DNA of 63,575 nt, filler included, from Hausera hauseri (lineage: Eukaryota): the NCBI GenBank assembly GCA_046269625.1. It is 12 parts of 12 records of this genome, joined end to end, with 100 filler letters (N's around TTAATTAATTAA, not from the genome) between each part and the next. Parts side by side here need not be neighbours in the genome. Positions count along the whole stretch, not along the records: positions 20,830 to 25,150 come from JBJURY010635664.1; positions 25,251 to 30,777 come from JBJURY010236184.1; 10 more parts are not named here. The stretch is one strand, 5' to 3'. A model generated the notes under the pieces. That model was not told the DNA's origin and did no database searches. It saw only the letters and a program-made list of their open reading frames with translations. The first letter of the stretch is position 1. Every line of letters starts with the position of its first letter. The position numbers were made by a program, and so were the translations under genes. Shown here piece after piece: positions 20,830-25,489 of the stretch.

Positions 20830-20951
20830 TCAATGTTATCGTCCGTTGAAACAGAATCAACGGGGTAGATTTCTTCAAATGCCGCATTGTCAATAACAAC
20901 TTGTGGTGCGCTTTTGTCAAATATACAAAATCCAGATTTTGCAGATGCCAT
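20830..20951 (-). CDS. Major capsid protein (double jelly-roll) N-terminus, cut by contig end
   Basis: MASAKSGFCIFDKSAPQVVIDNAAFEEIYPVDSVSTDDNI resembles the Maverick MCP start (KS..LF..P.Q..I......EY.P.......IEF). It lies immediately after the core-like gene. Confidence 0.7.
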
Positions 20952-20958
20952 TTGTCTG

Positions 20959-21318
20959 TCAATCGAAAATCGTACGACAACGACGTTTGTTTATAGTTAA
21001 TAAGCTCGATGACGCTCTACGGCGATTTCTCAAGTCACTGCCAGCGAATTGTTTTTTGACTGATTCAAAGACTCCCGGTGCAGCGCTTTTTATTTCTATC
21101 AAGGCTTGTGTCTTCAATGATGGTAAAAACGATTTGTTTTCATATAGTACGTCCTGTGCTGTTTTTGCTCTCACGGTTCCAATACGTTTCAACACCGGAA
21201 ATGCTAAACGTGACAATGTACGCAACCATCCAGAGCCACACTGTTTACCAACAAAATACGGCAGTTCACCGCCTTGCTGGAGTTTACTGTAAATGTATAC
21301 GATTTCGAAATCAATCAT
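20959..21318 (-). CDS. Small basic Maverick core or membrane-active protein
   Basis: QQGG and QCGSG protease-site-like motifs, amphipathic GWLRTLSRLAFPVLKRIG, Arg-rich tail ending TIFD. Located between penton and MCP. Confidence 0.72.
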   Translation of the reverse strand: MIDFEIVYIYSKLQQGGELPYFVGKQCGSGWLRTLSRLAFPVLKRIGTVRAKTAQDVLYENKSFLPSLKTQALIEIKSAAPGVFESVKKQFAGSDLRNRRRASSSLLTINKRRCRTIFD

Positions 21319-21319
21319 G

Positions 21320-22340
21320 TTGTTGTTGGATTCGACGGAAATGAAGAGTTATACTAGTAGCCCGCGTCACGTCAGATATTCACTTCAAAAATGTTTATAG
21401 ATGTAGATACAAAAGGTAGGTACATTGGATTATCAAGCTTGAGAGTGACATTGTCGCGAGCAGTATACTTGCTGCTTTCTGGATAAATTGCACGGACTAG
21501 CGAAACACGTACTCCACCGACCAAAATCGGTTCGATGACGTTCACGTAAATGTACATTTGACTTAGATCAGTTTTCAGTTCGGGTTTAAGTGTTGCAACA
21601 TGTTCCGCAGCCGCCGTCGTCGATGCCTCAAACCGCTGTTTTTCAAAACCCAATAGCATGCCCAAAGCTTTGTCCAATGAAATGTCAACAATATCCTTAG
21701 TCAGTTCAAATTTAATGTACCCATTTGCATCTGACTTGAAAACTTTAAATATCGCTTTCTACGTTTGATTTGAATAAAATTGTTGACGGAGATGTGATAC
21801 AAATTCACAATAGACATTGTCTCCAATTGATACGTATGACGTTGACACCCTTTCTGTTGTATAAGTAAATTTCACCGTTGTCTGGTAATATACGGGACTT
21901 AATCTATGAGCAACGACATATTCACTTTTAATGTGTTTACTTTGTATTCTGTATTTTTAAATCCAAATTTCTGCGCCATCTCAGAGGAATTAAATGTAAC
22001 AGTGAATTCAAAATCTGCCATAAAATTTAAGTATTCCCCTAAAATAAAAACACCGATCTTGACGTATATACCGTAATTTTTACTGGTCATGCAAATGGCC
22101 GATTCTCCAACTGTTATTTTATTGTCAGTAAGTGTCAGAGGACAGGAATGTGTTTTGGTTTCAGTAACAATCTTGTTGNNNNNNNNNNGGAAAGTTAAAT
22201 TCCGTCAGTGCAACCTTCCATTGTCCAGCAGAAAAATCCAAAGGATTGTTCCAATCTACAACTTATTCACTGGTGGAATTGTTCGGACAAGTCGTCGGAC
22301 AACTGTTGCTCAGCAACACCATGTAAATACTAATGATCTC
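21320..22340 (-). pseudogene. Minor capsid (penton)-like gene, copy B
   Basis: N-terminal IYMVLLSNSCPTTCPNN...GQWKVALTEFNF; C-terminal LGMLLGF, MYIYVNVIEPILVGG..SLVR, PMYLP, ITLHFRR. Stops and frameshifts present. Confidence 0.82.
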
Positions 22341-22384
22341 GATAATGATGATGATGATGGTGATGATGACGCAATTTGTTTATT

Positions 22385-23469
22385 ATTGACAACGACGACG
22401 TCGAAAATGTAACGTCAAACATATCGTTGACCCAAACAGAAATTTAATGGGTTCCCAAAATTCATCAAGCATATGCACGGAAATACTGTCCACAATATTG
22501 TGAGACAATGATAAGTACATGGATCTGAGAATATTAACGCAAACAGTTTCACCCGATGATGATGATTTGTACGTGTCAGAATCCAGTTTGATAGAAGCCA
22601 GTAGTTGTTTACGTTCTCAATTAATGAGTACGGATTCGGTTAAGTCCGTTAAAATGTTGATTCGGTAAAATGATCCATAGAGTTGTGGTTTGTATTTGGC
22701 AACAATAGATCGTCCAACAATGTTGTGATAGAATTCCAGTTTTGAAAAATCAAGATTCCGAGCCAATAATTCATCAAAGGCAAAATATGTAACTTTGTCA
22801 TGAAGTATAATCGAAGTATGACCATCTGCGTTAATTTCACATGCCTTTACGGCTAATGTAGCCGTTTTTTTGACGTACTCACACAATTCCAGTTTCGTTT
22901 CCATTAATAAATCGTGTGGTATAATATGTGAGCGGAACACTGATTCTGACTTAGTCCACTTTACTATAATATCGGATTCCGCATCGGATGAAAGGTCCAA
23001 ATTTTCACCAATTATAACATGTCCACCTAGCCGTAGACATTTTGAGTGTATATTGACTGATTGAGAACCCCATGCCTGAGCATCAGCTATAGAATTAAAC
23101 TGCATTTCAATGAGATTTCCATGTATTAGTTTTATACGGTAGTTTGAAAAATAAGCATAAACCTAGAAAAGTTGTAAGGAATAATTGCAAAGAGTATACC
23201 GGTTATTGTGTCGGATTGTCCTCAAACAACTTGAATAGGGTGCGTTTCTTGTTGGGTAAAGTAAATACCACTGTTCCGACATATTGTCATTGGTGAAAAT
23301 GTAAAGAAGAATTCCGTCAAAGCCACTTCTCAGACTCCCTGGCATAAATTGACTGGTTGGTCCAGGTGCATGTAAACTGTTTAGCGGTATTGTCATTTTC
23401 GTCATGTTGTGATAATGCTCTGTTGCTATCAAGTACCAAGTAAATGCTACTGCTGCTGCTGCTGCTCAT
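22385..23469 (-). pseudogene. Minor capsid (penton)-like gene, copy A
   Basis: N-terminal IYLVLDSN...N.AKQFTCTW.../EVALTEF; C-terminal LARNLDF, INILTDLTESVLIN, QLLASI, SMYLSL, DEFWEPIKF..G...LTLHFRR. Stops and frameshifts present. Confidence 0.75.
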
Positions 23470-24499
23470 TGAATCTATGATGCAAAAATCCGACTCGATG
23501 CAATGTATCCATGCCAGTTGACGAGATATTGTTTATTTGAAACTTTGCCACGTGAACGTCGAATATCCTGAATACGATATACATCGAGTTTCTCAAGCAA
23601 TACATGCAGTTCCTGATCGTATCATTTACCGCGTATTTCCTCGCCGTTTTCGTCCCCTAAAACGTACATGACAGGTGTTTGTTTTGTGTTGATTGCGAAA
23701 TGCGGAAAATCTCATCGCTTCAGTTCTGATTAAAATTCTTAATAAATGGCGTCGTACTTATTTTCGAAATACGTACGTGAGCACTCATTTTATATTTTAG
23801 GCATTTAATTGCCGGTCATTGTGTTTCGCTTTTATAAAGTCACATGTGCCAACCATCGATTATGTCAACCGGGCGCATTTCGTTGATTTCACGGTGTGTC
23901 GCATAATTGTATGCATGAATAATATCCGGCAGTACATCTACCCAGCCTTTGTTGCCTTGCTTCGTAAAGAATTTGTTTTGGCGACCGCGCAATGTTCGAC
24001 TAAATCGTTCAACGAGTGCAGCCTTATATTGGGAAAACACCGAGTAGTGGTTTATGACGAACTGTTTCAAGACCGCTGCAACGTGGGAGTTGTAGAATTC
24101 CTTACCCAAATCCGTTTGTAAATGTTTCGGTTGTTGTTGTTGTTGTTGCATCAGTGTCTGAATAGTGTCGGCAATCTCTTTACCGCATTTAGATTTTACG
24201 GCAATAGCACGTGCAAAAGGACTAAACACATCAACGCATGTGAGCGCGAACCAATACCCATCGTTGATGCTGGCATACGAAATCATTTCCATCAGATCCA
24301 TTTGCCATACGTTATTTACACCGGCAGCACGGTATGCACGAATTGGAAACCGCCTTCTTATCGGTTTGTTTAGGCTGTATGCTAACTGTTTCCCGAGCCA
24401 ACGTAGAGTCTGTTGTCAAGTCTCTTTGAGAGTCTTTGTCAGTTTGTCGACGCCAGTATACCCGACGGGATGACGCAGGTCGAACCACACGTCGCCCAT
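23470..24499 (-). pseudogene. Polinton rve integrase with C-terminal chromodomain
   Basis: HPVGYTGVDKL, WQMDL (D), LTCVDVFS, LQTDLGKEFYN (D), KAALVERF (E), YNYATHR, VRISK, TPVMYVL.D..GEEIRG, chromo-like KQYLVNWHGY. Internal stops. Confidence 0.93.
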
Positions 24500-24651
24500 C
24501 GTTGCCGTCGGTGTTGTCGTCGCCGGTTTTGCTGCTTGCATTACAACAATTTAAACAAAACGTAAATGAAAGATTCGGTAAACTAGGGCAAAATGATAAA
24601 AAACATGCACCCATATCGCCGAATTATCATTACGTACCATCATTGTTTATA

Positions 24652-25020
24652 CTATGCTGCAAAACCAATAAGTCCACCCAGTAATGACGTGACAATCGAT
24701 AGAATTGCATCATAGAATCCGCCATCTTTCTGGTACATGACCTCCTGTTTTAGTCGTTTACTACTGGCGTTAACTAAGCCAACGAGTCGTTTTCGATAAT
24801 TTAGTAAATTGCGCTTTCACTATCAATGTCAATGTGACCCACAATGGTATTGTACAAAATTTCCATCAAATCGTCTACTACAAATTGCGGAAATAATCGA
24901 CGCATGTTTCGCTTATGTCTCGTAGGCGCCTTGAGCAAAGCAATAAAGTAGAGCTAACTACGTTTAATCGCATGTTTCTCGGATTTTGTGTGTGGACGTT
25001 TTGATACTGCTGATGATGAG
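24652..25020 (-). pseudogene. Small conserved Maverick protein ending in Q..GGF plus amphipathic helix
   Basis: Frameshift-joined translation: LLKAPTRHKRNM..FPQFVVDDLMEILYNTIVGHIDI/KRNLLNYRKRLVGLV..KRLKQEVMYQKDGGFYDAILSIVTSLLGGLIGFAA*. Confidence 0.7.
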
Positions 25021-25489
25021 ATGTAGTTGAGTATAACCGTTGCGACTTTGACGGTAATTTGCGTCTAGCTGCTGCTTTTATTGTTCCAAACACCGAATTG
25101 ATTAATCATTTCACTGTAGCGGCGCTTCTTTTTTATATACGTTTTTTTCCNNNNNNNNNNNNNNNNNNNNNNNNNNNNNNNNNNNNNNNNNNNNTTAATT
25201 AATTAANNNNNNNNNNNNNNNNNNNNNNNNNNNNNNNNNNNNNNNNNNNNGATTCATTAACGATTAAATCAACATATTTACTATACCCATCCAATATTTC
25301 ACATTCTATCAGTCTATTTTTTCAAAACACTTCCGTTTTCCAACCTTCATATTTTGTAACTTACTGATTACTTCAAGGATCAAGATGTAATCATTAAACA
25401 ATAAAATAACAAAGCAACAATTTATTTCAAATTTACGCTCAACGGACCGCAGTAAAACAACAACACATTGTTGTTGTTTCAATCTTTAA

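Follow-up and report, generated by a model that had tools for sequence, protein, structure and literature searches.

What does the contig at positions 20830 to 25150 of a Hausera hauseri assembly represent, and why does it appear to carry two penton genes? The window, that is, the whole stretch of DNA that was analysed (63,575 nucleotides of GenBank assembly GCA_046269625.1), includes this contig (JBJURY010635664.1), which had been read from its sequence as an endogenous Polinton/adintovirus virion module with a legible gene order. Gene-by-gene matches, together with the modelled penton fold of an intact relative, bear out this assignment. We consider it very likely that the contig derives from the interior of a Polinton/Maverick (adintovirus) provirus, which entered an animal germline and then underwent neutral decay. 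In Polintons, the major capsid protein (MCP) is a double jelly-roll, the penton is a single jelly-roll, and an rve-chromo integrase inserts the linear genome.

Gene content and decay of the contig

The window consists of 12 contigs of 4 to 8 kb each, joined via N44-TTAATTAATTAA-N44 linkers. The region of interest is exactly one of these contigs (4.3 kb, 39% GC), lying between two linkers; hence, the adjoining contigs are not its genomic neighbours. Both of its ends, at 20830 and 25150, fall within the element. By reading all six frames, we found six genes, all on the minus strand, in the order GGF-motif protein, integrase-chromo, penton A, penton B, a small protein at the PW position, and the start of an MCP gene. 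The original prediction of six co-oriented, nearly abutting genes was thus recovered in full, with matches far beyond chance. Reading of the junctions placed the integrase ATG 110 nt after the GGF stop; this is the sole larger gap, as the virion genes overlap or abut. The integrase and penton A overlap by 4 nt (ATGA), penton B follows the penton A stop within less than ~50 nt, penton B and the PW-position gene overlap by 8 nt, and the MCP gene begins 7 nt further on.

The integrase gene (positions 23466 to 24541) has a Pfam rve match (E = 3.7e-11), an intact set of DDE triad residues, and a C-terminal chromodomain (E = 0.007, under the Pfam cut-off); the same domain, PF00385, is carried by many of the integrase relatives. 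A total of 216 of 472 candidate relatives were significant. The best was the intact protein P0002, which was 71% identical in that search and 69 to 75% identical to the window integrase in direct comparison. P0002 had no match among plasmids at E = 1e-20. Ahead of the integrase, a small basic protein with a GGF motif (approximately 24652 to 24975, 5′ end uncertain) would be core/pX-like. A 107-amino-acid (aa) open reading frame (ORF) of a metagenome locus, L002, matched it by tblastn in two frames (50% and 36% identity, E = 8e-16) and likewise lies directly ahead of an integrase. The remaining upstream sequence (24976 to 25150, minus strand) may be the end of a Lys/Arg-rich gene. There are basic ORFs upstream in L001, a second metagenome locus, and in L002, and neither aligns to it.

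Downstream of the pentons, a 119-aa ORF (20959 to 21318) has an open frame and is 39% identical (E = 6e-16) to the ORF at the equivalent position of L001. It had no Pfam or PHROG match, and its name (PW, or Cupiennin) is given by position only. The final gene is truncated by the contig end after 40 codons (20830 to 20951). Two of three candidate relatives matched these codons, P0271 with 88% identity and P0272 (410 aa) with 83% (E = 4e-15 to P0272), and the L001 ORF at the syntenic position is 44% identical. P0272 has an Atlas feature score of 0.98 to clusters whose members have a DJR-like_dom in 30% of cases; it had no match in phage genomes or PHROGs. On position, features, and the relatives at 83 to 88% identity, we take 20830 to 20951 as the probable start of an MCP gene. 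The contig stops in this gene, ahead of the published protease position, and motif and Pfam scans of the window gave no convincing match for an ATPase or adenain, in agreement with the original prediction.

We then counted lesions. Homologue-supported frames contain 14 stops in 1,309 codons; one is the natural end of penton B, leaving 13 that are premature (six in the integrase, three in each penton gene, one in the GGF gene, and none in the PW-position or MCP sequences). There are at least six frameshifts: one in the integrase near 23696, at least one in the GGF gene, two in penton A near 23372 and 23250, and at least two in penton B, which also has a 10-N gap at 22179 to 22188. The window copy makes no integrase or penton. 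The stops correspond to 0.098 substitutions per site (range, 0.054 to 0.165) if all 14 are used and to ~0.09 with 13. Such a history would begin with integrase-mediated insertion of a linear viral genome in the germline, followed by neutral decay, and the ancestral virus would have carried both penton genes, A and B. The GGF and PW-position proteins would be small basic precursors of core or cement proteins, processed at their glycine motifs by the viral protease. Cleavage at glycine motifs is the rule for the viral protease.

Two penton genes

To place the two penton genes, we built a profile from 98 relatives and searched the entire window with it in six frames. Penton B (approximately 21311 to 22337, start uncertain) matched with an E value of 3e-59 and penton A (22383 to 23469) with an E value of 7e-42; on the other contigs, nothing scored better than E = 0.1. 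Penton B is the family-typical minor capsid gene. With the intact protein P0001 (345 aa) as the query, 618 proteins were found in the 50% library at E ≤ 0.001, and among the best 150 of these 618, 140 score higher on B and 9 on A. In contrast, penton A is a divergent paralogue; only 1 of 430 candidate relatives was significant, P0001 itself. Identity between penton A and P0001 is 54% over 285 aa (55% in the candidate search) and reaches 68% in the C-terminal part. Penton A and penton B are only 20% identical across 121 positions and are therefore too distant to have arisen by duplication after insertion. A separate observation concerns another relative, P0122, a 451-aa penton in which the insert region apparently occurs twice; two of its parts match one region of penton A.

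Since the window copies are broken, the fold was modelled on P0001, using AlphaFold2 with a 100-row alignment (predicted local distance difference test [pLDDT], 93.7). The penton profile had no match among PDB sequences. The top Foldseek match of the model was the mavirus penton (E = 5e-7), and matches in BFVD were minor capsid and adintovirus proteins at no more than 13% identity. A wide structure search returned PBCV-1 capsid chains (Z = 14.9 and 14.6), the mavirus penton (Z = 13.0; root-mean-square deviation, 6.8; 235 residues aligned), and the Sputnik and aviadenovirus pentons (Z = 12.7 for each), with unrelated folds at Z ≤ 5.8 from rank 9 onward. Atlas comparison of P0001 agrees with the penton assignment. 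Like the pentons of mavirus (6G41), Sputnik (3J26), and aviadenovirus (8ROQ), the model is a single jelly-roll with an inserted domain; unlike them, P0001 belongs to a different virus group, at 7 to 13% sequence identity. The original prediction depended on jelly-roll homology of its penton candidates, and this homology was found: the intact relative folds as a single jelly-roll penton, and the family profile recognises both genes of the window. Prediction of a two-copy P0001 complex gave a score of 0.00, which is no evidence either way.

P0001 departs from its family in a specific manner. It lacks 13 of 40 conserved residues (those shared by 80% or more of the remaining 99 rows of the alignment), compared to a median of 3, and only 2 of 99 rows lose as many. 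Despite these losses, it has an open 345-aa frame. The window penton A has the same derived residues in the part that aligns, indicating that penton A diverged in an active virus and not during decay of the insertion. We consider penton B most likely to have been the main vertex protein of the ancestral virus. For penton A, the chances seem to us about even that, carrying a surface insert of another kind, it was a second vertex subunit or formed an alternative vertex.

The main competing explanation is that penton A is a redundant copy: selection on it had relaxed, and it played no separate part in the virion. The penton A pair sits on a long branch, as does the upstream penton copy of L001, and the A type is rare: besides its one close relative among 430 candidates, only two proteins in the 50% library reach E ≤ 1e-30, P0001 itself included. 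The 13 lost residues would also fit this explanation. On the other hand, P0001 is full length, open, and confidently modelled, and its derived residues and the 68% C-terminal identity are common to the window copy. We regard redundancy as possible but distinctly less probable than a second vertex protein.

A penton tree (FastTree; C-terminal region; 73 rows by 146 columns, chosen among relatives of 300 to 460 aa with the best scores; deep support weak) grouped the two L001 pentons together (support, 0.8) and placed the window pair in another clade (0.88), where they are not sisters. This hints, weakly, that the window and L001 pairs arose by separate duplications. A broader and more doubtful proposal, which we consider possible but rather unlikely, is that invertebrate adintoviruses duplicated the penton repeatedly and independently and that the upstream copy here was a second, structurally intact vertex protein, giving mixed pentamers or two vertex types. 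If true, this would be a division of labour between vertex proteins, which has not yet been shown for Polintons. If the divergent copy was kept by selection, its lineage would allow the construction of Polinton vertices to be studied in a natural experiment.

Relatives and known systems

A scan of genome contigs yielded 33 pattern matches, from which 5 loci were obtained, all on short contigs in bacterial bins. L001 has the order integrase, penton, penton, PW, and MCP, with the same 4-nt overlap of integrase and penton; an N break splits its first penton, and we saw no GGF gene there. The order in L002 is basic ORF, GGF, and integrase. We saw no virion genes in L003, and L004, scanned with the penton profile only, gave no match. 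In L005 (1854 to 4904), an integrase is followed by ORFs of 484 and 279 aa with a faint penton-like start and then by a basic glycine-motif protein. L005 was not counted as a two-penton case, as the penton profile probability is <1% for both ORFs; no alignment was obtained between PW and the ORF that comes next. L005 may represent a distant module with two pentons. L001 (in Planktothrix sp. UBA8402), L002, L003, and L005 are contigs with Polinton-type integrases in GTDB bacterial bins and are most likely misbinned eukaryotic-virus DNA. Polinton contigs can thus be seen sitting in bacterial genome bins. P0001, P0002, and P0272 are open frames, and P0001 and P0002 are each listed with a 3314-nt contig, which suggests that they are neighbours too.

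These metagenome sequences are the closest to the window module (71% for the integrase, 55% for penton A, and 83 to 88% for the MCP start), with L001 sharing the two-penton order and L002 the GGF-integrase order. The available text on known modules gives integrase-mCP-PW-MCP-protease for vertebrate Mavericks (PMC8097293) and Integrase, Penton, Cupiennin, and Hexon for the Beta map (PMC8502044). By gene order, the module in the window is like the Beta (Terrapene-class) and vertebrate modules in having integrase, minor capsid, PW (at the Cupiennin position), and MCP in one orientation; the GasderminX region of the Beta module falls beyond the contig. Unlike these modules as described there, it has two pentons, each of ~345 aa, and a GGF gene before the integrase. 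Compared by eye with the rows available from PMC4028283, the N-terminal and central motifs of the window pentons are nearer those of Ciona, sea urchin, Xenopus, and turtle PX than those of insects. The available part of the same source describes integrase-mediated insertion, MCP facets, and penton vertices for Polintons.

Duplicate pentons are reported for the adintoviruses Adinto23690 and Adinto18043 in the accessible portion of 10.1101/2024.03.25.586562. By description, the module in the window resembles these viruses in its duplicate pentons, an adenovirus-like penton insert domain, and an rve integrase with a chromodomain, and the set in that study may contain the lineage of this module. 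The same portion defines adintoviruses by a Hexon that both finds and is found by those of reference adintoviruses in BLASTp searches, and it reports the duplicates without a function; a literature search for such a function led to this preprint only. Tandem pentons go unmentioned in the available parts of 10.1101/2023.08.22.554363, PMC4642659, 10.64898/2026.10.13.758929, and 10.1101/2025.02.07.637071, the last of which separates insect polintons into mael-linked and cupiennin-linked groups. The searches support the conclusion that the module has no close named relative among the sequences searched, as judged from sequence comparison. The element is very probably a Polinton/adintovirus, and none of the defining features that we examined spoke against this. 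According to the available text of PMC8502044, adintoviruses in a degraded state occur widely in the germlines of animals, and one more fossil fragment therefore adds little. The gene order and duplicate pentons are already published, and the divergent penton A is the one lead worth following; the value of the fragment is as a pointer to a lineage with two pentons and with open-frame relatives in metagenomes.

Other Polinton pieces and host sequences in the window

The window also contains Polinton sequences on unlinked contigs. A second, different integrase piece (12386 to 12511, minus strand) spans 42 codons with 71% identity to P0002, and its DNA is 73% identical to that of the module integrase over 119 nt. 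A protein-primed DNA polymerase B (pPolB) gene, broken but almost complete in length, lies at 30879 to 34690 (plus strand; Pfam DNA_pol_B_2, E = 4.3e-7), with exonuclease and polymerase motifs in order over three frames. Recognised by its similarity to this gene, the C-terminal piece of a second, different pPolB lies at 40500 to 40882 (minus strand); the two contigs share protein identities of 46% and 72% (E = 4e-16). The original prediction counted three pPolB pieces. Only two pPolB-bearing contigs were found by tblastn and a motif scan of the window, which a very divergent third could escape. The second integrase that it named is real, and amounts to this 42-codon piece of a diverged copy.

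It has also been suggested that all of these pieces, the second integrase and the pPolB contigs as well as the module, belong to a single virus lineage present in multiple copies. All the pieces do come from one assembly window, and the 30879 to 34690 polymerase could belong to an element of mixed type: it matches PF03175, which is the Alpha criterion in the available text of PMC8502044, and the pairing of an Alpha PolB with Beta virion genes is known from accessible parts of PMC8502044 and 10.1101/2024.03.25.586562, so that its linkage to the module is possible. However, the integrases (73% at the DNA level) and the pPolBs (46 to 72% at the protein level) have diverged so far that separate Polinton families are indicated, the contigs have no overlap beyond these diverged homologous stretches, none of it at high identity, and the third pPolB was not found. 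The split of insect polintons into mael-linked and cupiennin-linked groups (10.1101/2025.02.07.637071) would also count against it, as the contig of the longer pPolB has a putative MAEL-like ORF, although with a motif that searches did not support. A single lineage is therefore unlikely. As the original prediction acknowledged, nothing connects the integrase piece or the pPolB contigs to the module contig.

Several points count against reading the contig as a decayed two-penton provirus. Neither a junction with host DNA nor a terminal repeat or target-site duplication is present on the contig, and its integration is therefore an inference. Broken copies also occur among the host genes of the window, which leaves a small chance of assembly error. 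The penton A type is defined by a single intact relative, P0001, and relaxed selection could also account for the conserved residues that it lacks. For the MCP candidate, where the original prediction expected a jelly-roll, the Atlas comparison leans positive, but the recognition value of P0272 (2264) is below the 2300 mark, its AlphaFold2 model has a pLDDT of 31 from a 4-row alignment, and P0272 has no match in Pfam or among PDB sequences. Two trees support decay. The terminal branch of the window integrase is 0.31, compared to 0.10 for its intact sister P0002 (62 rows; support, 1.0), and that of penton A is 0.37, compared to 0.08 for P0001 (FastTree). This excess of amino acid change agrees with the stop-based estimate of decay. 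An intact or free virus, with stops and frameshifts produced by sequencing or assembly errors, would suit the missing host flank and a fragmented assembly in which other genes are broken too, but it is very improbable given the excess change on the window branches and the open frames of 505 and 533 codons elsewhere in the window, which a uniform 1.5% lesions per codon would hardly have spared. A germline insertion that then decayed remains our preferred reading.

The surrounding contigs carry animal-type genes, Gypsy and Tc1/mariner pieces, and an ~8-kb GA/GACA microsatellite with internal gaps (12540 to 20440), which starts beside the second integrase piece. Eukaryotic domains on these contigs are SSXT, PI4K_N, RhoGEF, MIB_HERC2, Tra1_central, Sec63, and ankyrin. 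Such contents indicate that the assembly is a fragmented one from an animal. Opposite the longer pPolB, positions 34750 to 36415 (minus strand) contain a dUTPase end (E = 0.009, under the cut-off), a putative MAEL-like nuclease ORF, and a further ORF without assignment, a probable accessory region of another Polinton. The MAEL-like reading comes from a motif that searches did not support. Within the exonuclease region of the same pPolB, 32487 to 32885 (plus strand) has a weak endonuclease VII match (E = 0.007).

Host-gene copies occur in several places. At 44543 to 46065 (minus strand), beside a Gypsy element, a Tra1_central match (E = 2.5e-23, with stops) is followed by an MROH2B-like HEAT match (E = 3e-10) and a Sec63 match (E = 7.5e-13), the last two sharing a single 402-codon open frame; this looks like captured fragments of three unrelated host genes, with a chimeric ORF. 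Apparently intron-poor, broken copies lie at 60500 to 61400 (MIB_HERC2-bearing), 37578 to 38774 (RhoGEF), and 53172 to 54212 (PI4K_N, in overlapping frames). They may be processed pseudogenes or decayed duplicates, and we take the MIB_HERC2-bearing copy to be HECTD1-like. Rfam and tRNA scans of the window returned no matches. Positions 6400 to 8122 (minus strand) are stop-riddled and read as decayed coding sequence, with no Pfam match in three frames. The regions at 46170 to 47257 and 48120 to 48965 contain a 90-codon frame, ~130-nt tandem repeats (46576 to 46974), and a 427-nt direct repeat at 76% identity; the frame has a motif that we assume to be TBP-like, for which PDB and PHROG searches gave no support. 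Finally, a 505-codon open frame at 9075 to 10589 (plus strand), with no significant Pfam match, has a zinc-knuckle-like start and a coiled-coil end.

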